Assembly: GCF_000317125.1 (NCBI RefSeq) | Contig: NC_019695.1 | Span: forward strand, 358,336-422,335 | Direction of reading: 5' to 3' | DNA: 64,000 nt | Origin: Chroococcidiopsis thermalis PCC 7203 | GTDB lineage: Bacteria > Cyanobacteriota > Cyanobacteriia > Cyanobacteriales > Chroococcidiopsidaceae | Part shown: positions 5,967-31,207 of the stretch, in pieces | Layout: each line of letters opens with the position of its first letter | Position numbering within the stretch: position 1 is the first letter of the stretch | Made by a program: the position numbers and the translations under genes | The notes under the pieces: generated by a model | Seen by the model: the letters and a program-made list of their open reading frames with translations, nothing else | What the model was told of the DNA's origin: nothing | Databases searched by the model: none

Positions 5967-6941
5967 TTATTTTTTCTTGCCTCCAAATAGACCGCCAAAC
6001 ATTCCCCCACTTCCAGATGGCTCTGATGGTTTTTTCGACGCAGTTTTAGATGCAGTTTTATCAGAAGTGGCTGTTTGAGTGCCAGCTTTACTCGCTAGCC
6101 GATCTAACAGTTGTTTTCCTTCTAGGGCGATCGGATCTTTAGGGTCTAATTGTAGGGCTTTGTTAATATGTACCTTAGCCATAGTAGCCTGATTCTGCTT
6201 CAAATAAACCGTGCCAATTAAGCTATGACAGCGACTATTATTTGGCTCTAGCTTCAGCGCATCTTTCAGCTCTACACTCGCTGGGGCGAAGAGATTCTTT
6301 TCCATTAAAGACTGGGCGCGACGAAGATAGGGTTCAGCTGGCGATGGAGGTGACTCTGGCTCAGTTGGGGGAGGCGAAGATGCTGCCGGTCGAGAATGTT
6401 GGTTGGGAACCACAGATGGCACAGTCGTTCTAGCAACCATAAATCCAGTACCACCTTTACGCCCTAAGTAGACTAGGTTTAATTCGCTGATTTGACTAAT
6501 TATAGGGATAATTCTTTCGAGAGATTCATACTGTTGTTTTGTCACTTCAGCGATCGCTTTTTGATAGACTTGGTCGATATCTGTGCTGTGTTGAAGCTGG
6601 ATCGATAGTTCGTTTTTGAGCGAAATGCTGGTTGTTTCCTGAGCTAACCGCTTGCCCATCTCCCGCAGCATCACCATGTATTCAACACGACTGTAATCCT
6701 GGGATAATTTTTTATAAGCGGGATTGACAAGCTTAGACAGAATATGATTTGCCGCTTGTTTATCTGAAATACTTTTAGCCGTGCAAGTATCGGGATGTAA
6801 GCAGCGAGCAATAATCAAATAGCGTTTGCGAATTTCTTTAAAGTCGGCATCAATTGGAACGCCCAAAATTGCATGGCAATCTGTGAAGTCAAATAAAAAT
6901 AATCCGCCATCAATCTTAAAAGACATATGTTTTTGTCTCAC
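5967..6941 (-). CDS. J-domain (DnaJ-like) protein with TPR repeats
   Basis: J-domain with an HPD motif (AILGVPIDADFKEIRKRYLIIARCLHPD), a Pro-rich linker and C-terminal TPR-like repeats. Confidence 0.8.
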   Translation of the reverse strand: MRQKHMSFKIDGGLFLFDFTDCHAILGVPIDADFKEIRKRYLIIARCLHPDTCTAKSISDKQAANHILSKLVNPAYKKLSQDYSRVEYMVMLREMGKRLAQETTSISLKNELSIQLQHSTDIDQVYQKAIAEVTKQQYESLERIIPIISQISELNLVYLGRKGGTGFMVARTTVPSVVPNQHSRPAASSPPPTEPESPPSPAEPYLRRAQSLMEKNLFAPASVELKDALKLEPNNSRCHSLIGTVYLKQNQATMAKVHINKALQLDPKDPIALEGKQLLDRLASKAGTQTATSDKTASKTASKKPSEPSGSGGMFGGLFGGKKK

Positions 6942-7023
6942 CTCTGCCTATTGCACGATCGCTGGAATGTGGTATTAGCGTGGTTTAATTATCACCACCA
7001 ATCTAATAATTCCCAGATTGTGG

Positions 7024-7854
7024 CTAGGGATTATAATGACTCCAAGTTGAGAGTGGTGGCACTTGAAGTAATTCTTGGCTGAGACTTGAATGAATTAGTC
7101 CATTCGTGGCTAAAATCCTGCCAGTTGCTAGGTCGATTGGGCTACCATCATAGGCACTGACTTGACCCCCTGCTGCTTTGAGAATGGCAATTCCAGCAGC
7201 AATATCCCACAGAGAAATTCCCCGTTCCCAGTAGCCATCGATGCGCCCGCTGGCAACATAAGCTAAGTCTAAAGCTGCTGCGCCGCTGCGCCTGACTCCT
7301 TGAGTCAGATGAGTCAAATGACAGAATTCGGCATAGTTATTATCAGCTGTTTCGCGGCGATCGTAGGCGAAACCAGTTACCAGAAGACACTTACTCAGTT
7401 CGGCTGTGGTTGAAACGCTTATAGGTTTGCGGTTACAGGTCGCGATCGCCCCTTTTGCCCCTCGGAACAATTCATCACGATAAGGATCGAAAATGACTCC
7501 AACCTGTGGAACTCCAGCTATTAATAACCCAATTGACACGGCGAAACAAGGATATTGATGCGCGAAATTTGTCGTTCCATCTAAAGGATCGATCGCCCAA
7601 CAAAATTCGCTGTCTGCATTCCCCAGCTTGCCCGATTCTTCCGCTAGAATGGCATGATCGGGAAAATGCCGCTGTAAGACTTCTAAAACTACCACTTCCG
7701 ATGCTCGATCGGCAGCAGTTACTAAATCTCCACCCCGTCCTTTTTCTCTAACTTCTTCTAGCTTACCTAAATAGCTCAGCAAAACCGCACCCGCAGCTAA
7801 GGCGGCTTCTGTAGCAACATCTAAGAATGTTTGGAGTTGTCGATCGTTTGTCAT
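7024..7854 (-). CDS. Inositol monophosphatase family protein
   Basis: IMPase motifs DPLDGTTNF and WDIAAG. Confidence 0.85.
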   Translation of the reverse strand: MTNDRQLQTFLDVATEAALAAGAVLLSYLGKLEEVREKGRGGDLVTAADRASEVVVLEVLQRHFPDHAILAEESGKLGNADSEFCWAIDPLDGTTNFAHQYPCFAVSIGLLIAGVPQVGVIFDPYRDELFRGAKGAIATCNRKPISVSTTAELSKCLLVTGFAYDRRETADNNYAEFCHLTHLTQGVRRSGAAALDLAYVASGRIDGYWERGISLWDIAAGIAILKAAGGQVSAYDGSPIDLATGRILATNGLIHSSLSQELLQVPPLSTWSHYNP

Positions 7855-7905
7855 TTGTCATTTGTCATTTGTCAATATTCTCCCTTGTCCCCCTTGTCTT
7901 CCTTA
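7848..7905. repeat. STRR2-like (TTTGTCA)4 followed by CCCTTGT repeats
   Basis: Visible catttgtcatttgtcatttgtcaa then cccttgtcccccttgtcttcc. Confidence 0.85.
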
Positions 7906-8438
7906 TCCCTCTTCTCCCCGACTCCCGCCATTTGCCGAAATTCAGTCGGGGTTTGCCGCATTGGTTGTTTCACATCCCACACGCCACGCCCCATGATTCT
8001 TGCCCAGGCTTGTGCTTTTTCCAAGCGATCGTCATACTTACGATCGCGCGATCGCCCATCCCACAAAACATATCCCTCTTTCAGTAGTTGCTCGTTCAAC
8101 AATTTGCCATTTTGCCACACATAAGCCCACTGTCGCCCAAATTTATCTGGCTGTCCGTCAAGTTCTAAGGTAACTGTCTTGCCGTTGACCGTTGCTTCTA
8201 GCTGCTGTTTAGCTGCGTGTCCCCAAGGCTGTTGCTGGATATCTGGGGCTTCAATTCCCGCAAGTCTCACTTTGAAAGCCTCCCCTCTACTTATGGCTTC
8301 TAGAGTTTGTCCGCTGACTACACGCACAACCTGCGCTGGCATTCCGTTATCGATCGCACGAAACTGACAACCCTGAATAAACAAGAGTGGGAGAAAGACA
8401 AGGGAGACAAGGAAGACACGGGAGAAACTACTACTCAC
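7872..8438 (-). CDS. Thermonuclease (staphylococcal nuclease-like) lipoprotein
   Basis: Signal peptide with a lipobox-like FIQGC, then an SNase-like core (VVRVVSGQTL...GIEAPD...WAYVW). The signal-peptide codons are themselves built from CCCTTGT repeat DNA. Confidence 0.7.
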   Translation of the reverse strand: MSSSFSRVFLVSLVFLPLLFIQGCQFRAIDNGMPAQVVRVVSGQTLEAISRGEAFKVRLAGIEAPDIQQQPWGHAAKQQLEATVNGKTVTLELDGQPDKFGRQWAYVWQNGKLLNEQLLKEGYVLWDGRSRDRKYDDRLEKAQAWARIMGRGVWDVKQPMRQTPTEFRQMAGVGEKRDKEDKGDKGEY

Positions 8439-8462
8439 TAACTGATAACTGATAACTGATGA
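8436..8462. repeat. STRR-like (ACTGATA)3
   Basis: Visible tandem heptamers. Confidence 0.8.
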
Positions 8463-8825
8463 CTATTCCTCATCCAAAGGTAATCCCGACCTAACTCTAC
8501 CTTTGGCAAAATAACGCCCAAATTGCAGTTCATAAACTTCATCTTCGTCTTGGGTTTCTACTTCCATGTCAGAACGAGCATAACTAACACATAACAGAGC
8601 ATAACCGCGATCGCGTAATTCTGGTGAGAGTCCCATTGCCTCTGGCTGATACACTTCTCCCGATAACACTCTAACAGCGCAAGTCGTACAAGCACCATTA
8701 CGGCAAGAAAATGGTAATTCTACCCCTTGTTGTTCTGCCGATCGCAAAATGTATTGGTCTGCGGGGACTTCGACAGTATGAATTGTACCGTTGGCGCGAT
8801 CGTGTATCCGAATTGTATGTGTCAT
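8463..8825 (-). CDS. Plant-type [2Fe-2S] ferredoxin
   Basis: Cys pattern CRNGACTTCAV...LLCVSY, typical of plant-type ferredoxins. Start taken at the MTHTIRIHD Met. Confidence 0.8.
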   Translation of the reverse strand: MTHTIRIHDRANGTIHTVEVPADQYILRSAEQQGVELPFSCRNGACTTCAVRVLSGEVYQPEAMGLSPELRDRGYALLCVSYARSDMEVETQDEDEVYELQFGRYFAKGRVRSGLPLDEE

Positions 8826-8954
8826 AAGCAATTTTGAATTTTAGATTTTGGAGCCACTGCCTTGCGGAGGTTTCATCCGTTAGAGCAAGTGACACGATTT
8901 TAGATTGGTTTGAAAATATTCTTTTCTATTGTATGATGGGAGATCGCGACACCT

Positions 8955-9041
8955 GGAGAGGTGGCCGAGTGGTTGAAGGCGCAGCACTGGAAATGCTGTT
9001 TGGGGGCAACTTCAACGTGGGTTCGAATCCCACCCTCTCCG
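8955..9041 (+). tRNA. tRNA-Ser (anticodon GGA), class II with a long variable arm
   Basis: Hand-folded: acceptor GGAGAGG/CCTCTCC, D-arm with GG, anticodon stem CAGCA/TGCTG with loop CTGGAAA, long variable arm, T-arm GGGTTCGAATCCC. Confidence 0.85.
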
Positions 9042-9063
9042 TTGAAATTTCATACGTCGATTA

Positions 9064-9096
9064 AAAGTAGGGGCGCATATTTGTGCGCCCCTACTA
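9064..9096. terminator. Bidirectional rho-independent terminator hairpin
   Basis: Perfect inverted repeat GTAGGGGCGCA-N-TGCGCCCCTAC followed by a T-rich tract. It lies between tRNA-Ser (+) and the convergent minus-strand gene. Confidence 0.7.
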
Positions 9097-9141
9097 AATT
9101 TACGTTCCACTAAAATTAATCTGTGGTCTTACCGCATCAGC

Positions 9142-12947: not shown

Positions 12948-13670
12948 ATGGTTATCTCGTCCGACAATTTGCTCTTTTCTACTCACTCAAAACCAGGTAC
13001 ACAAGCAGAATATTCCTTAAAGAAGAAGTATCCCCAGAAGCACGACCATTACAGCTTTGATGACTACTTCCAATTTCAACCGAACACGGGCATTGTCACC
13101 GATTGGCACGACCAGCGCCATCTATTTGCCACAGAAGACTTCATCGTAGGATTAATTGAGGGATTGGAAGAAGAAGTCGGTAGCGCTTCTACAGTCTTGA
13201 TGTACAACATTGGCTTCGAGTGGGGAACCAGGGATGCCAAATTCTTTCAACAGTGGTTTGAGCAGGAATATGGCAAGAACGTCAAAGAAGTCAATTCCCT
13301 GTACATGCTAGAAGCATGGTGGTGGCCCTTCACCGCTCAAGGCTGGGGCAACTGGGAAGTCGATATGAGCGACCATAAAAACGGGTTCATGTTCGTCAAC
13401 ATCTTCGATTCTGCCGTAGCTAGAACATTGGGCGATGTTGGTAAACCAGTTTGTCATATCTATGCGGGATTATTTGCTGGATTCTTTAGCGATCTCGTTA
13501 AAAAAACCTTGAGTTGCATTGAAATTCAGTGCTACTCAATGGGAGAAACATACTGTAAATTCCTCTTGGGTACAAAAGACCGGATTGATGCTGCTGCCTT
13601 CTGGCACAACGAAGGTGCTACAGCTCGCGATATTGAAAAGCGGCTGCGTCATGGAGAACGGTTAGGATGA
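12948..13670 (+). CDS. V4R-domain protein (operon gene 1)
   Basis: C-terminal PVCHIYAGLFAGFFSDLVKKTLSCIEIQCYSMGETYCKFLLG matches the V4R consensus PVC....G...G........E..C...G...C.F. Paralogous to gene 4 (14742-15410). Confidence 0.6.
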   Translation: MVISSDNLLFSTHSKPGTQAEYSLKKKYPQKHDHYSFDDYFQFQPNTGIVTDWHDQRHLFATEDFIVGLIEGLEEEVGSASTVLMYNIGFEWGTRDAKFFQQWFEQEYGKNVKEVNSLYMLEAWWWPFTAQGWGNWEVDMSDHKNGFMFVNIFDSAVARTLGDVGKPVCHIYAGLFAGFFSDLVKKTLSCIEIQCYSMGETYCKFLLGTKDRIDAAAFWHNEGATARDIEKRLRHGERLG

Positions 13671-14188
13671 GGAATCGAAATGTTTTGCTGTGCCAATCGG
13701 TACAGCAATTTTTGCACTCTTGTAACTGGGACGGACAAGAGATTGAGGATGCCGATTACCCGCAACATCAACTTAGCGAGGAATTCCTATCTTCTTGGGA
13801 ATGCTTGACAGTTCAACAATTCTTGCGGCTTTGTGGATGGGAAGGAGAACAACAGCCAGCCAAGAGTGATGTGCCGATTCCAGCGCCACTACAAAATCAA
13901 TCGCCGCTACAGCATTTTACTCCCATCGCCAATCCTCATGCAGCTTGGTTGCGGCTTTCCGTCAAAAAATTCTTCAGCCATTGCAATTGGCAAGGGCGAC
14001 CAGTTGAGGATGTTAACTGGGGACAACTAGACCCCTATGCCCGAATGAAACAACGAGTCAGAGATTGTTTTGGGTATCTTCCTTGGGAAGGGAATCCAGA
14101 AATTGGAACTCTGCCCAAGTCTGCGACTAAGCTACCGCCACCTTTAGCTCCCGAACCGACCTTTTCAGACTTATCAGATCTATTCTAA
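13667..14188 (+). CDS. Cys/Trp triple-repeat protein (operon gene 2)
   Basis: Three copies of a ~14-aa motif: SVQQFLHSCNWDGQ, TVQQFLRLCGWEGE, SVKKFFSHCNWQGR. ATGA overlap with gene 1. Confidence 0.5.
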   Translation: MRNRNVLLCQSVQQFLHSCNWDGQEIEDADYPQHQLSEEFLSSWECLTVQQFLRLCGWEGEQQPAKSDVPIPAPLQNQSPLQHFTPIANPHAAWLRLSVKKFFSHCNWQGRPVEDVNWGQLDPYARMKQRVRDCFGYLPWEGNPEIGTLPKSATKLPPPLAPEPTFSDLSDLF

Positions 14189-14200
14189 AGCTGCAAATTT

Positions 14201-14686
14201 ATGTACCCAGAAATCAGAGCCATACTTGATGATGCTGAAGAACGCTATCTTAGGCTAGAAGAAATAGTTGCTTTGAAGCATCATGTTTCATCCTTTGCCC
14301 AACGCTTGCAAGTTTATGAAGTGCTGCGGGATAACGAAATTGCTATTTTTCAACCGATCGCTGACCAACTGCTCGTAGCTTTTCCCCAACACAAACAAGA
14401 AACCATCGAACGCGCCTTAAAAAATTGGCTGGGAACGCTACGTTACTGTGCAATGGCAATGCTGTTGAATAATCCCATGTTTCTCCAACATCGTTTGCTG
14501 GAATGGCTGACGGACATCATTCAAGTTCACCAAACACAAGGCATTGATACAACCCTTTATCAGTTCCTCATAACTCGCCTGCCAGAAATTTTGGCTGAGG
14601 AACAAATGGCTCTGCTGCAACCGTTCTTAGCTCAAGTGGAACAAGCTGTCATGGGAACTTGTAGTGCAGCCACAGTGCCAGCATAA
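14201..14686 (+). CDS. Phycobiliprotein-fold (globin-like) protein lacking the Cys-81 equivalent (operon gene 3)
   Basis: 161 aa and all-helical, with DAEERYLRLEEI and LGTLRYCAMAML segments aligning to phycobilisome-protein helices. No Cys at the bilin-attachment position. Confidence 0.5.
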   Translation: MYPEIRAILDDAEERYLRLEEIVALKHHVSSFAQRLQVYEVLRDNEIAIFQPIADQLLVAFPQHKQETIERALKNWLGTLRYCAMAMLLNNPMFLQHRLLEWLTDIIQVHQTQGIDTTLYQFLITRLPEILAEEQMALLQPFLAQVEQAVMGTCSAATVPA

Positions 14687-14741: not shown

Positions 14742-15410
14742 ATGATTACTGTCGCCGATTTAATCAAAGACGAACGCTTACCAGGAAATTATTTTGCCTT
14801 TGATGCCTACATTCAGGGTGATTTTGAATCAGGTTTGCTGGAAAATCGCCACGGCGATCGCCTCATAGCAATTCCAGACACGCTGATTCAATCGATTTAC
14901 ACCGCACTCAACCAAGAAACAGGTCAAGCTTCCGGTGTAGTACTTGCCAATTGCGGGCGCTGGTGGGGCAAAAATTTCTACGCTCGGTTCGTCGAACAAG
15001 TTAGCGAGTACTACTCTAAACCGATCGATCAAATGGAGATGGTTGAGTTTACTCAGTGTCTCAGACAGTGTTGGAAAGCTCATGGTTGGGGAACTTTTGA
15101 ATTAGATTTGAGCTACTACCAACAAGGATTTTTAGTCGTCAAAACCCAGAATTCTCCCTACGCCAAGCAAGCACCCCAGAGCAAAAGACCAGTATGCTAT
15201 TTTGAAGCAGGTATCCTCCGCGCTTTCTTCAGCCAACTGACAGGACGAGAACTTCACTGCCTGCAAACAACCTGCGAATCTCTCGGAGCTGAGTACAACC
15301 ACTTTGTTCTAGGCTTAGCACAACGAATCAAACCAGCCGATGCTTGGTTAGAAGAACAGCAAGAGCATGAAATTATCATGCACCGACTCTGCAATAGTTC
15401 TAATCAATAA
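14742..15410 (+). CDS. V4R-domain protein (operon gene 4, paralog of gene 1)
   Basis: PVCYFEAGILRAFFSQLTGRELHCLQTTCESLGAEYNHFVLG is a V4R-like C-terminus. The N-terminal half also aligns with gene 1. Confidence 0.6.
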   Translation: MITVADLIKDERLPGNYFAFDAYIQGDFESGLLENRHGDRLIAIPDTLIQSIYTALNQETGQASGVVLANCGRWWGKNFYARFVEQVSEYYSKPIDQMEMVEFTQCLRQCWKAHGWGTFELDLSYYQQGFLVVKTQNSPYAKQAPQSKRPVCYFEAGILRAFFSQLTGRELHCLQTTCESLGAEYNHFVLGLAQRIKPADAWLEEQQEHEIIMHRLCNSSNQ

Positions 15411-15439: not shown

Positions 15440-15922
15440 ATGGCAAAGACTGTCAGACTAGAACCAATCGGTGAAGAAACCTCCATTCAAACGAATGGCA
15501 ACATCCTATCTGTTCTGTTAAAAAACGAACTGAATGTGTTGCATGAGTGTGGCGGTCGAGGAATGTGCGCTACCTGCCATGTTTACATCAAAAGTGGTAT
15601 GGAAAGCTTATCTTCACCCAGCCGACGCGAACGGCGGACAATTGAGGTCATTACTTCTGCCAACAATCATTCTCGCCTCGCTTGTCAAGCTTTAGTGATT
15701 GGTGAAGGTGTAGTCGTTGAATTACCTGCTGGTACGTATGTCAGTGCAATTGATGATATTGAGTCTCTCATCGGCACGCGGGCAGAACAAAACATCCTTC
15801 ACCCTCTAGACGGTAGAATCCTTGTGGAAGCAGGTAAGTTAGTTACCCGTTCGATGATTACTCAACTTCAAGATACTCGTACTGAGGTTTCTGAGTATAT
15901 GAATCATGCCAGCGATGCTTAA
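15440..15922 (+). CDS. [2Fe-2S] ferredoxin, adrenodoxin/putidaredoxin type (operon gene 5)
   Basis: CGGRGMCATCHVYI ... LACQA cysteine pattern, plus a ~60-aa C-terminal extension. Confidence 0.7.
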   Translation: MAKTVRLEPIGEETSIQTNGNILSVLLKNELNVLHECGGRGMCATCHVYIKSGMESLSSPSRRERRTIEVITSANNHSRLACQALVIGEGVVVELPAGTYVSAIDDIESLIGTRAEQNILHPLDGRILVEAGKLVTRSMITQLQDTRTEVSEYMNHASDA

Positions 15923-15967: not shown

Positions 15968-16441
15968 ATGTTAAGTCAGTTAGCCCGCTTAACCGTAGAA
16001 GCGGACGGTCGCTACGCTACTTCAGAAGAACTTCAGTTTCTTAAAGATTACATTGAGTCTCTTGATACTCGTGCAAGCGCATATCAAAAAATCCAAGCTG
16101 CTGAGGCAGAAGTTCTCAGTCAGTTGGAGGCAAAGTGGGCTGCTAACGAGAATTTGTTTGGGCAAGGTAACAATAAACTCAATGTTTCAACCTGCCAACG
16201 CGATCTGAAAAATATGATACGTTACACAGCCACAACTGTATTGAGTAGCGACCTCGATCGCCTGCGAGAAAGTTGTTTGCTTTGGTATCAAACTATCGTT
16301 CGTGCTTACAAATACGGACATATTGCTAACATCACATATCCATTACTAAATGAGTTGATGAAACAGTTTCTATCTGCTGAAGAAGCAGCGCTTGCATCTC
16401 CAGTTTTAGGACTCAACCAAGTGATTTTGGGTAAAACATAA
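15968..16441 (+). CDS. Allophycocyanin-like phycobiliprotein-fold protein retaining the Cys-81 equivalent (operon gene 6)
   Basis: ADGRYATSEELQF resembles the N-terminal phycobiliprotein helix (ADARGEFLS.EQL). STCQRDLKNMIRYTATTV aligns with AACLRDMEIILRYV, the bilin-binding Cys region. There is an AGGAGGA RBS 8 nt upstream. Confidence 0.6.
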   Translation: MLSQLARLTVEADGRYATSEELQFLKDYIESLDTRASAYQKIQAAEAEVLSQLEAKWAANENLFGQGNNKLNVSTCQRDLKNMIRYTATTVLSSDLDRLRESCLLWYQTIVRAYKYGHIANITYPLLNELMKQFLSAEEAALASPVLGLNQVILGKT

Positions 16442-16475
16442 CTGGTAGTTGGTAATTGGTAGTTGTTAGTTATTT
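16441..16475. repeat. STRR-like (GGTAGTT/GGTAATT)n
   Basis: Visible tandem heptamers. Confidence 0.8.
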
Positions 16476-16539
16476 ATCGATCGCCATTACCCATTACCCC
16501 GTTACCATTTCCTTAATTGAAAATTCAAAGTAAGTTACT

Positions 16540-17526
16540 ATGCAAGACAATTTCACAGCACCAGCAAATAAATATCCTTGGTTAGAAAAGGTAGAAATCG
16601 CATCGGTCGTTGGTTCAATTGGTGGCGCGATCGCTTCTTTCATGCTCAACCAGGCAGCAGTTGCCGCAATTCCGCTCTCTGTAACTGTCGCGCTCAACTT
16701 AACTAATCGACGGATACTGTTAGATCATTTAAAACAACACAATTTAGCCACGATCGCTCAAGTTTTGCAAGAGCAGGTCAAAACTCAATCTAATCTAGAA
16801 AGACTGAGTGAAGAATTGGGAACATTCGAGCAACAAACAGAGAAAAAGCACGGTGAAGCGCAAGCTGGAATTAAGTTGTTAGACGAACATCTTCAGCTAA
16901 CAAATAATAACTTGCAACAAGCGCGAGAAAATAGCGATCGCAGTATTGCTCAACTCCAACAGCAAGACGCAAACATTCAAAATCAGTTACAAACGCAACT
17001 AGAAACGCTCAACCAGCAGCTAGAGCAGCTCCAGCAACAAACTAATATGCTAGTACAGGAGCAAAACAACCGTTTAATGAACGAACAAGCTAAGATTGCT
17101 AGAACTGTAGATGCTTTGCGCGATATCGAGACTTGCACTCAAAGTTTGCGGATCAATCCGATTTCTGCTAATGCTTTCTTCAATCGCGGTTTGAGTTATC
17201 AACGTTTGGGCGATCGCGAAGCAGCAGTTGGCGATTTTACAGAAGCAATTCGAGTTAATCCTCAATATGCAGAAGCTTTTCAAAGTCGCGGTCTTGCCCA
17301 TGCCGATCTCGGTGATAAAAAAGCGGCAGTACGGGATTTACGCGAAGCCGCCAGACTATTTTTTGAGAGCGGTGAGATTGATAAATATCAAATTGCTCGC
17401 GACCTCGGTAAGAAGTTTCACGATTTAGATTCGCCTAGTGAAGCAGAAGCGCTCACAGAGGTAGCTTACGAAAGCTCAATGGCAGGCTCGTTTGAAGATA
17501 TTGCCTTAGAGTCTTTGTTCTCTTAA
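16540..17526 (+). CDS. Coiled-coil / TPR-repeat protein with an N-terminal TM segment
   Basis: Q/L-rich coiled coil followed by TPR-like repeats (AFFNRGLSYQRLGDREAAVGDFTEAIRVNPQYAEAFQSRGLAH). Confidence 0.65.
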   Translation: MQDNFTAPANKYPWLEKVEIASVVGSIGGAIASFMLNQAAVAAIPLSVTVALNLTNRRILLDHLKQHNLATIAQVLQEQVKTQSNLERLSEELGTFEQQTEKKHGEAQAGIKLLDEHLQLTNNNLQQARENSDRSIAQLQQQDANIQNQLQTQLETLNQQLEQLQQQTNMLVQEQNNRLMNEQAKIARTVDALRDIETCTQSLRINPISANAFFNRGLSYQRLGDREAAVGDFTEAIRVNPQYAEAFQSRGLAHADLGDKKAAVRDLREAARLFFESGEIDKYQIARDLGKKFHDLDSPSEAEALTEVAYESSMAGSFEDIALESLFS

Positions 17527-17746: not shown

Positions 17747-17785
17747 AATGAATTGGGGTTACATGACCCCAATTCTCAGTTATTT
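17747..17785 (+). terminator. Stem-loop GAATTGGGGT-tacatg-ACCCCAATTC followed by a T-rich tract
   Basis: Perfect 10-bp inverted repeat followed by tcagttatttt. Confidence 0.5.
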
Positions 17786-17984: not shown

Positions 17985-18863
17985 ATGAGTGAAACTTTAC
18001 CAATTTCCTCCAAATATCATATTTTAAAGCTAGTTGGACAAGGGCAATTCGGACGAGTCTACTGTGCTATTGATAAAAAAAATGGTAAAACTGTAGCACT
18101 TAAAGAACTCGACCAACAAAAGTTTCCCACGAAAAAGTTTTTACGAGAATTACATTTCTTATCTAGCTTGCAGCATCCAAATATCATTTCTTTCCAAGGT
18201 ATAGAGCATATAAAAAATGCAAGATTTCTGGTTATGGACTATTGCGAAGCCGGAACTTTGCGTAATTTCATGCAAAGCGATGACTTTAATCTCATTCACG
18301 GTTTGAAATTTATTACAGATATTCTTGCTGGACTGGGACACGCACACACTCGTGGTGTCGTTCACTGCGATATTAAGCCAGAAAATATTTTAATTAGTAT
18401 AGGTTCTACTAGCTACTTAGCTCGGATTTCTGATTTTGGTTTAGCAAGAGTTTGTCAAGAAATTTCTACAGATAAAATTATCTGTACTGGTTCTCCTGCA
18501 TATATGGCTCCAGAAAGATTTTATGGTAAATCTTCTCCAGCGTCAGATCTTTATGCAGTTGGAGTCATGCTGTACGAGTTGGTTTTGGGTTTTCGTCCTT
18601 TTTCAGGAATGCCAGGAGAATTGATGACAGCTCACATGAATCAAGCTGTGGAAATTCCTAGCGCTGTTCCGCTCTTACTACGTTCTACAATCTCCACTGC
18701 CATGCAAAAATTCCCTAACAAGCGGTTTCCATCAGCAGCTGAGATGATGAAGTCAGTGCAATTAGCCATAGAAGTAGAAAAAGTAACGTACGGTAATATT
18801 CCTCCTCTAAATATACCTTCTAATATTCCTTCATTCTCTTACCTAAATAGTACGCAAGCCTAG
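17985..18863 (+). CDS. Hanks-type Ser/Thr protein kinase
   Basis: GQGQFGRVY...ALKEL (ATP-binding Lys), HCDIKPENIL, DFGLAR, GSPAYMAPE. Locally AT-rich. Confidence 0.85.
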   Translation: MSETLPISSKYHILKLVGQGQFGRVYCAIDKKNGKTVALKELDQQKFPTKKFLRELHFLSSLQHPNIISFQGIEHIKNARFLVMDYCEAGTLRNFMQSDDFNLIHGLKFITDILAGLGHAHTRGVVHCDIKPENILISIGSTSYLARISDFGLARVCQEISTDKIICTGSPAYMAPERFYGKSSPASDLYAVGVMLYELVLGFRPFSGMPGELMTAHMNQAVEIPSAVPLLLRSTISTAMQKFPNKRFPSAAEMMKSVQLAIEVEKVTYGNIPPLNIPSNIPSFSYLNSTQA

Positions 18864-18962: not shown

Positions 18963-19685
18963 ATGAGCTACTTAGTTAAACCTGGATTCTCGACTTGTTA
19001 TTATATTCGTAAACTCTTGCTACAAAACGAAGAGGAATTGAAAACAATCTTGAGTCAAAAAGCCGGCTTTTGTTTCAACACACAAGAAACTTTAGAAAAG
19101 CTTTTAAGAGGAATTTATCTGGAAGAAACGATCGAACAACTTTTACAAACTCTTTATGCCGATACTACTGAAATTTCTACTAAAGTTGAAAAACTGGAAG
19201 TGTTAGTAGCCAATCATCAAAGAATTTCTGTAGAAAGTCCCCATAACTATCAAGGATTAGGCGAGATTAAACGCCAGATCTTATGGATATTAGGTTTTAA
19301 GCGAGTAGCTGTCAAGATTGAAGATATAGTTCAAGCCCTGGTTCAATTGAATGAATATAGTATCAATTACATAGGGCGCACGTTGACTATCAACACATGG
19401 AAATCAACTCGTCCTGATTTTGAATGGCTAAATTTATTTGAATTCGATCGGTTTGGCAAAATCACCTTTGCTGGACAAGGAAAGGATGTAGCCAATGTCG
19501 AACAACTCAATTGGTTACAAGAATGGATCGTTGGCTACGTCTGTCAAGTTGCTCAGTTCATCCGCGACTTTACAACTACAATTGAATATAAAAAAATTGG
19601 TGAATTACCGGAAGGGGTATTAATTACTCAAGTTACTTCTTACTCTCACTGGGTTGCTGCAAAACCGCGATCGGCACAAGTTTGA
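18963..19685 (+). CDS. Hypothetical protein, probably co-transcribed with the kinase
   Basis: 240-aa ORF with no recognisable motif. Same strand and the same AT-rich composition as the kinase. Confidence 0.4.
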   Translation: MSYLVKPGFSTCYYIRKLLLQNEEELKTILSQKAGFCFNTQETLEKLLRGIYLEETIEQLLQTLYADTTEISTKVEKLEVLVANHQRISVESPHNYQGLGEIKRQILWILGFKRVAVKIEDIVQALVQLNEYSINYIGRTLTINTWKSTRPDFEWLNLFEFDRFGKITFAGQGKDVANVEQLNWLQEWIVGYVCQVAQFIRDFTTTIEYKKIGELPEGVLITQVTSYSHWVAAKPRSAQV

Positions 19686-30597: not shown

Positions 30598-30669
30598 GTT
30601 TGATTAGCTCAGTTGGTAAGAGCGCCTGCTGTATGCGGGATGACCCAGGTTCAAATCCTGTATCAAACC
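30598..30669 (+). ncRNA. tRNA-like element 1 (pseudo-tRNA; anticodon loop reduced to 5 nt)
   Basis: Hand-folded: acceptor GTTTGAT/ATCAAAC, U8, D-arm GCTC-AGTTGGTAA-GAGC, T-arm CCAGG-TTCAAAT-CCTGT. The anticodon arm folds only as CCTGC-tgtat-GCGGG, a 5-nt loop. Confidence 0.5.
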
Positions 30670-30671
30670 CC

Positions 30672-30745
30672 CGAAAGTTAGCTCATTTGGTTAGAGCAAT
30701 CGGTGTATCGCCGATTGGTAGCAGGTTCGATTCCTGTACTTTCTC
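30672..30745 (+). ncRNA. tRNA-like element 2 (non-canonical anticodon loop UGUAUCG, no U33)
   Basis: Acceptor cGAAAGT/ACTTTCt with a mismatched first pair, D-arm GCTC-ATTTGGTTA-GAGC, anticodon stem ATCGG/CCGAT with loop TGTATCG, T-arm GCAGG-TTCGATT-CCTGT. Confidence 0.5.
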
Positions 30746-31207
30746 CAAAATCCCCTCGTCCTGGGTACGGACACCTTGTTAGGGACAAGGCAATTTAACG
30801 GATACAGGTTAGGCGAAGTCTAACGCTGGACGTGTTTGTTTGATGAGTTCGTGAATTACTCTGTCATGCAGGTGTTTTATTGCAGTTCAGGAGCCAGCGC
30901 AAATGTAATTCTCTCTAACTTGAGTATGTCCTTCGTTTTCCCAATCCGATTCTCTACAGAGACTCTGGCACAGGCAAATCGAACGGCGTATTTGAGCGTT
31001 GTTGGCTTTGGTTGAATTACCTTCGGGTGTTCTGGCAAGGTTACAGCACTCTTCATCCAGTTTTGGAGAATCTTTTGCCCGCACCAAGATTGTTAACCCC
31101 TGTACTGGCAGAGTAAAACATATTTTTGTATTATATGTAGTATACCGAAATTATCTTGCTAAGGGTTGTAAGCTCCTGGTTAGTAGCTAAAGCTGCCAAA
31201 AAGACGA

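Follow-up and report, generated by a model that had tools for sequence, protein, structure and literature searches.

We analyzed a 64,000-nucleotide (nt) stretch of the Chroococcidiopsis thermalis PCC 7203 genome (contig NC_019695.1 of assembly GCF_000317125.1, positions 358,336 to 422,335 of the forward strand), hereafter the window, and focused on an open reading frame (ORF) at 13667..14188 on the plus strand, which starts with ATG and encodes a 173-residue repeat protein that we call X. WP_015152441.1 / K9TTL4, deposited for the same strain as a "hypothetical protein," has exactly the sequence of X. A first-pass annotation of this DNA had described three copies of the motif (S/T)V(Q/K)(Q/K)F(L/F)xxC(N/G)W(D/E/Q)G in the protein, and we found three exact matches, at residues 11–23 (SVQQFLHSCNWDG), 48–60 (TVQQFLRLCGWEG), and 98–110 (SVKKFFSHCNWQG). 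These copies are spaced 37 and 50 residues apart, in agreement with the spacing of roughly 40 residues given there. Three is the number of exact copies; a degenerate fourth copy at residues 131–142 (VRDCFGYLPWEG) and the C-terminal tail had been overlooked. Close homologues keep the fourth copy as VxEFFQFIPWEGxPEIG, and upstream of the Val, each unit continues as W-x-C-L-S-V, an extension that had likewise been overlooked. The window protein is composed of three units of one flavor (type A), one terminal unit of a second flavor (type B), and the tail, all encoded on the plus strand: unit A1 at 13685..13735 (residues 7–23, LLCQSVQQFLHSCNWDG), A2 at 13796..13846 (residues 44–60, WECLTVQQFLRLCGWEG), A3 at 13946..13996 (residues 94–110, WLRLSVKKFFSHCNWQG), B at 14045..14116 (residues 127–150, MKQRVRDCFGYLPWEGNPEIGTLP), and the conserved acidic-hydrophobic C-terminal tail PTFSDLSDLF-COOH at 14156..14185, whose FSDLSDLF segment is kept among close homologues.

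A looser form of the motif, V..[FC][FL]....W.G, matches X four times. Among 200,000 shuffles of X, none contained this form twice and 42 contained it once. The loose form V..F[FL]....W.G was found 124 times in six-frame translations of 948 kb (the window plus related loci), and all 124 matches fall within X or the equivalent ORF of a related locus. Because the shuffles never gave two copies and every match in the 948 kb lay within X or its equivalents, we take the repeat to be real and not a chance pattern. We also considered the motif as a targeting signal shared with other proteins; this was rejected, with zero occurrences outside X in the 948 kb.

The first-pass annotation could assign no known domain to X, and our searches led to the same result. 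Searches of Pfam, NCBIfam, and the Protein Data Bank (PDB) with X gave no match, and 54 family members compared with Pfam and NCBIfam gave no consistent match. The PDB matches of the profile built from these 54 members were designed coiled coils with E values of 0.0095 or worse, which we judged spurious. A word-indexed homologue search with X found 23 relatives, all from Chroococcidiopsidales-like organisms, since the family evolves too fast outside the motifs for such a search to reach further. An exhaustive profile search, by contrast, recovered 362 clusters (50% identity) at E ≤ 1e-3 and 168 at E ≤ 1e-10, and proteins in the best 150 of the 362 clusters are 86–419 residues long. The word-indexed search with the family profile gave 34 matches, all named "hypothetical," and the source-database names of family members are without exception "hypothetical" or "uncharacterized." The X family occurs throughout the cyanobacteria sampled here.

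To describe the units, we built a hidden Markov model from alignment columns, with no regular expression, and collected 559 units. Val is present in 92% of them, the first Phe in 97%, and Phe or Leu at the second position in 95%; Asn is found in 68% (Pro in 13%), Trp in 100%, and Gly in 96%. Type-A units, which occupy the first and middle places, follow S-W-[QL]-C-L-S-V-x-E-F-F-x-x-x-N-W-x-G-x-P, and the type-B unit, always the last, follows L-S-L-T-L-[SP]-V-x-E-F-F-Q-x-[IF]-[PNA]-W-E-G-x-P-x-I-[AG]-x-L-P. The family layout is an N-terminal type-A unit, zero to five further units, one terminal type-B unit, and a tail of the form [ED]-Φ-T-L-x-D-[LF]-S-D-L-F-COOH, the last two positions of which are Leu in 95% and Phe in 96%. 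Among 233 proteins, 2 units were found in 62, 3 in 134, 4 in 24, 5 in 7, 6 in 5, and 7 in 1, and the first Trp is residue 21 in 142 of 245 family proteins. Within the close family, identity to the window protein is 66% in the motif segments and 34% in the spacers, which are Pro/Gln-rich, unconserved, and from ∼15 to more than 80 residues long. Selection, these comparisons show, acts on the short helical units and the tail, not on the spacers. X itself carries the two features by which we recognize the family, at least two V-x-x-F-[FL]-x-x-x-x-W-x-G units and a …D-[LF]-S-D-L-F tail.

This conservation pattern bears directly on the first-pass annotation's functional suggestion, a Cys-x-Trp metal or cofactor site or a covalent Cys-Trp crosslink. 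All three type-A units of X do contain C-x-W, the protein has six Cys residues, and neighboring genes handle tetrapyrroles and Fe-S clusters. However, the Cys-x-Trp-x-Gly element that had been called invariant is so only in the three copies of X: across the family, Trp and Gly hold, and Cys two residues before the Trp occurs in 21–22% of units. Many orthologues have no Cys at this position in any unit; the residues that replace it are Ile, Phe, Ser, Val, and Leu, and in the last unit it is Ile or Phe, with Pro before the Trp. We found no conserved His/Cys ligand pattern across the X family, X is predicted to be disordered, and no maturation enzyme is encoded nearby. With Cys in 21–22% of units, the site or crosslink is not supported; the conservation data bring it close to refuted, and we consider it very improbable.

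X lies within a run of plus-strand genes. Directly upstream and overlapping its start is a V4R gene (V4R-A, slr0144-like, 12948..13670; Pfam V4R, E 5e-22), and directly downstream is a gene for a phycobilisome-like bilin-biosynthesis-associated globin (BBAG1, slr0146-like, 14201..14686; Pfam Phycobilisome, E 1.1e-8). These are followed by a second V4R gene (V4R-B, slr0147-like, 14742..15410; Pfam V4R, E 6e-19), a 2Fe-2S ferredoxin gene (slr0148 / Fd5-like, 15440..15922; Pfam Fer2), a second phycobilisome-like globin gene (BBAG2, slr0149-like, 15968..16441), a gene for a tetratricopeptide repeat (TPR) protein whose central region is coiled-coil-like and whose conserved C-terminal tail reads …LESLFS (slr0151-like, 16540..17526), and a Ser/Thr protein kinase gene (slr0152 / SpkG-like, 17985..18863). 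The neighbors of X in the window comprise V4R, globin, Fer2, TPR, kinase, DUF167, and DUF2231 genes, and the five further loci described below have comparable neighbors. BBAG2 carries a CQRD motif (16193–16204), an instance of the CXRD motif for bilin attachment that Rockwell et al. 2023 discussed (PMC10151467); BBAG1 lacks a CXRD, and its only two Cys are residues 83 and 154.

The order of these genes (V4R, X, phycobilisome-like, V4R, Fer2, phycobilisome-like, TPR, kinase) is the published order of the slr0144–slr0152 operon, also called the V4R/BBAG cluster, minus slr0150 (PMC10151467, PMC4195498, PMC4853703, PMC11863333). The second globin and TPR genes are only 98 nt apart (16442–16539), and so there is no equivalent of the petF-like ferredoxin gene slr0150. 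We identify X with high confidence as the second gene of this cyanobacterial operon, in the slr0145 position, with the unit and tail anatomy described above. The start codon of X (13667–13669) and the TGA stop of V4R-A (13668–13670) overlap in an ATGA on the plus strand (13667..13670), with GGAG 11 nt upstream of the X start, and the overlap suggests translational coupling of X to V4R-A. Within the coding sequence of X, 18 nt from its start, is a 10-bp hairpin with a trailing T run (13685–13708), and the first 60 nt of this coding sequence in the window fold at −18.3 kcal/mol (z = −3.5). As a conserved translational-coupling element, the hairpin was rejected: it is not kept at this place in 75 orthologous loci, which have a mean z of ∼0.

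In Synechocystis sp. PCC 6803, slr0144–slr0151 form one transcription unit, TU2264, in which slr0145 is entered only as a hypothetical protein (PMC4195498), and the slr0144–slr0152 products have been named Pap, photosystem II (PSII) assembly proteins (PMC4853703). As summarized in PMC4853703 from Wegener 2008 and Kubota 2010, pap operon proteins were found with PSII or photosystem I (PSI) preparations. Rockwell et al. 2023 traced the globins, both V4R proteins, and the Fe-S protein back to pre-PcyA bilin reductase-associated clusters; the BBAGs are not light-harvesting phycobiliproteins, and slr0145 is left undiscussed (PMC10151467). Slr0145 resembles X in following the V4R gene slr0144, in an otherwise identical gene order, and in being named hypothetical. 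Its operon differs from that of the window in having the petF-like slr0150, and the two proteins were compared by gene position only. In the literature searched, we found bare listings of Slr0145 and no function, motif, or family described for it.

We next examined gene linkage in the best 80 of 434 V4R-A relatives confirmed in genome contigs. All 80 loci are cyanobacterial, and the Synechocystis locus lies outside this sample. A motif-bearing ORF with two to seven motifs lies directly 3′ of V4R-A in 78 of the 80 loci, and in 74 of 80, it overlaps V4R-A by a 4-nt [AG]TGA start/stop. (A tblastn search with the window protein at ≥28% identity over >100 residues detects X in 15 of the 80.) The two other loci are L039, with a disrupted ORF, and L080, a deletion variant; two of the 78, L002 and L035, have a truncated or frameshifted copy. 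A reverse check, which started from the exact sequences of five family members, one of them a 419-residue, 6-unit form, placed all five between a V4R gene and a phycobilisome-like gene, again with this overlap. X is linked to V4R-A (78/80) as tightly as V4R-B (75/80) and BBAG1 (74/80), and it belongs with these three to an invariant core. Linkage is looser for the kinase (57/80), BBAG2 (54/80), Fer2 (46/80), and TPR genes (31/80, counted in the retrieved flanks of the loci). The first-pass annotation had suggested a dedicated accessory function within a V4R/phycobiliprotein-like operon and had named absence of the protein from homologous operons as evidence to the contrary; its presence after V4R-A in 78 of 80 loci and in all five reverse look-ups supports the suggestion.

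Two operon architectures recur in these loci. The full form runs V4R-A, X, BBAG1, V4R-B, Fer2, BBAG2, TPR, and in some cases the kinase, and has an X with three to six units. The second runs Fer2, BBAG2 … V4R-A, X, BBAG1, V4R-B, and a long kinase with no nearby TPR gene, and has a 2-unit X of ∼100–120 residues. In the deletion variant L080 (Chlorogloea sp. CCALA 695, about 6001–9100), a truncated V4R-A is followed directly by the genes for the second globin, the TPR protein, and the kinase, and the operon is without X, BBAG1, V4R-B, and Fer2.

The operon setting also allowed us to weigh a reading of X as the multi-core precursor of a ribosomally synthesized and post-translationally modified peptide, in which each repeat would be a core peptide. 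Conserved short repeats with variable spacers do resemble such precursors. However, neither the operon nor its flanks, in the window and the five looked-up loci, contain a radical-SAM, P450, YcaO, protease, or transporter gene, and the X gene is fixed in a photosystem-assembly-linked operon of the sampled cyanobacteria. We regard this reading as extremely improbable.

The kinase gene raises a different possibility, that X is a substrate or regulator of the SpkG-like kinase and that phosphorylation of the Ser/Thr before the Val and of the tail Ser toggles docking. slr0152 encodes SpkG, and slr0148 (Fd5) is its likely substrate; several Synechocystis operon proteins are phosphoproteins, and the phosphorylation of Fd5 is SpkG-dependent (PMC11863333). 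Ser or Thr directly precedes the Val in 79% of units, Ser is found in 78% of tails, and 57 of the 80 loci have a linked kinase gene. Nevertheless, this linkage to V4R-A is weaker than that of X (78/80), we found no phosphosite data for Slr0145, and a Ser/Thr before a helix may be a simple N-cap. We consider such a switch improbable; it would be compatible with the adaptor model proposed below.

The kinase region itself differs among cyanobacteria. The SpkG-like kinase of the window (17985–18863) has only 292 residues, the kinase domain alone, and is followed by a conserved 240-residue ORF without a Pfam match (18963–19685). The pairing of a short kinase with this ORF recurs in Chroococcidiopsidales-like loci (L001, L003, L004, L007, L008, L080). 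In most other cyanobacteria, the kinase has 590–720 residues and a long C-terminal domain ending in …DLRxLDLDLLF. We considered this ending as a shared docking motif and rejected it; it is probably the last strand of the folded C-terminal domain. Between the TPR and kinase genes of the window lies a perfect palindromic hairpin, GAATTGGGGT…ACCCCAATTC (17750–17775), terminator-like on both strands. Farther downstream, at 30598–30746, genes for tRNA-Tyr(GTA), of only 74 nt, and tRNA-Ile(TAT) abut with zero spacer, both with modest Rfam scores of about 44–45 bits.

To obtain a structural view, we modeled X with AlphaFold2. From a 24-sequence alignment, X alone gave a mean predicted local distance difference test score (pLDDT) of 37.5, with short helices at residues 12–18 in unit A1, 49–55 in A2, 99–105 in A3, and 131–134 in B, as well as at 169–172 in the tail and 38–42 in a spacer. 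The chain is predicted to be intrinsically disordered, with short helices at the motifs. The X and BBAG1 genes share a reading frame, with V4R-A in a different frame from X, and we also modeled a chimera of X and BBAG1, with the placeholder residue "X" at the stop codon (…DLF-X-SCKF-M…). The chimera alignment, which differed from that of the X-alone run, had few rows covering X and many covering BBAG1, and pLDDT was the output. In this model, type-A units reached a pLDDT of 62–77 vs. 35–44 in X alone, from differing alignments, which is at most a faint sign of docking, and the BBAG1 part scored 85–95.

The units are aromatic-rich and amphipathic, with hydrophobic moments of 0.47–0.53 in 11-residue windows. 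They might act as membrane-interface anchors, Phe/Trp amphipathic helices that enter the cytoplasmic thylakoid face and tether the V4R and BBAG proteins near assembling PSII, which would suit the reports, as summarized in PMC4853703, of operon proteins with PSII or PSI preparations. However, the helices are only ∼7 residues long, and their hydrophobic moment is moderate. Near-invariant Asn, Trp, Gly, and Val are atypical of lipid-binding helices, which tolerate hydrophobic exchange, and X is acidic in its tail and carries a net charge of −6. The conservation of Asn, Trp, Gly, Val, and the Phe-Phe pair, together with a helix of ∼7 residues, favors specific recognition over binding to a generic hydrophobic surface or membrane, and we consider membrane anchoring unlikely.

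We tentatively propose, with a confidence somewhat short of even, that X is a multivalent disordered adaptor that tethers the folded proteins of its operon, and not a metal or cofactor site. X has the traits of the scaffold class: predicted disorder, short motifs that are conserved, spacers that are not and that differ in length, and two to seven units across the family. In this model, the chain would be intrinsically disordered, and each unit would form a two-turn amphipathic helix with Val, Phe-Phe, and one further hydrophobic residue on one face and N-W-x-G as a cap. Through each such unit, a short docking peptide, X would bind a folded partner from the same operon. We rank V4R-A, which has the conserved 4-nt start/stop overlap with X, as the likeliest partner; V4R-B and BBAG1 are further candidates. 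The acidic LF tail would dock at a second site, and X could in this way tether the operon's soluble proteins to one another, in several copies or of several kinds.

Several points weigh against the adaptor. The partners of X are all candidates, none of them fixed by physical or computational evidence, and the best 150 family representatives include no natural fusion between X and a partner. The number of units follows operon architecture and phylogeny (2 vs. 3–6 units) and, therefore, says nothing clear on stoichiometry. The equivalence of X and Slr0145 was drawn by synteny, that is, from gene order alone. A low pLDDT is by itself no proof of disorder in X, and the chimera alignment had fewer X sequences, which makes the rise in pLDDT ambiguous. 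Moreover, a DSSP bridge between residues 48 and 98 in the chimera suggests motif-to-motif packing. This bridge and the gain in pLDDT of the type-A units would be expected if the units packed, in a single chain or by oligomerization, into a folded repeat domain that AlphaFold missed given the shallow alignment. Nevertheless, spacers that range from ∼15 to more than 80 residues and are Pro/Gln-rich and unconserved, a unit number that varies from two to seven, and the pLDDT of 37.5 for X alone argue against such a domain, which we judge quite improbable.

Disordered linkers of comparable design are known from carbon fixation. EPYC1, from the pyrenoid of algae, and the carboxysome proteins CsoS2 and CcmM are multivalent disordered linkers with repeated short helices. 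X shares with them a disordered chain, as predicted, a repeated short conserved element, and variable spacers and copy number. In contrast, X has no sequence similarity to these proteins, is much smaller, and is linked to V4R and globin genes rather than to Rubisco, and nothing in our data on X points to condensate or shell formation. A second comparison is with the phycobilisome linker polypeptides (PF00427, PF01383), which organize phycobiliprotein discs. X is encoded beside phycobiliprotein paralogues and might organize them. However, a Pfam scan of X (E ≤ 1) found neither linker domain, X is predicted to be unfolded, and the BBAGs are not light-harvesting.

The tail of X recalls C-terminal peptides in other systems. 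The EEVD tail of Hsp70 and Hsp90 binds TPR domains, and SSB has an acidic-aromatic tail. Like these, X has an acidic stretch and a hydrophobic end at its free C terminus, and its operon also encodes a TPR protein. The sequences differ, however, and X is kept in many loci without a TPR gene in the retrieved flanks. The Slr0151-like TPR protein itself ends in Φ-x-[SDN]-L-F-[SAG]-COOH, as IALESLFS in the window (17497–17526) and as VAVGSLFA or VAVSNLFG in other loci (L001–L080). This ending resembles the L-S-D-L-F-COOH of X, and the two tails may share or contest a docking site.

A more far-reaching form of the adaptor model, which we consider distinctly unlikely as it stands, is that X organizes a hitherto unrecognized higher-order assembly. 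With its two to seven Trp-helix units and its LF tail, X would cross-link BBAGs and heterodimers of V4R-A and V4R-B, giving a scaffolded or condensate-like module for handling tetrapyrroles or bilins at photosystem assembly sites. The Slr0151-like TPR protein would, through its own similar LF tail, contend with X for the docking site. If this were true, the principle of EPYC1 and CsoS2 would be in use for pigment handling and not for carbon fixation.

The slr0144–slr0152 operon has been tied to the assembly and repair of PSII (and PSI) since 2004–2008 and, more recently, to phycobiliprotein origin and bilin biosynthesis. The V4R, globin, and Fe-S genes have been the focus of comparative studies, which have bypassed slr0145. 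The deposition of X as a hypothetical protein and the operon itself are already known; the definition of the family, its Trp-helix units in two flavors, the LF tail, the overlap with V4R-A, and the membership of X in the operon core appear to be undescribed in the literature searched. For specialists, the significance is moderate, and nothing known is overturned. The practical gains are two: a signature that recognizes the X family where ordinary similarity searches miss it, and exact peptides and point mutants with which to find what the V4R and BBAG proteins bind.

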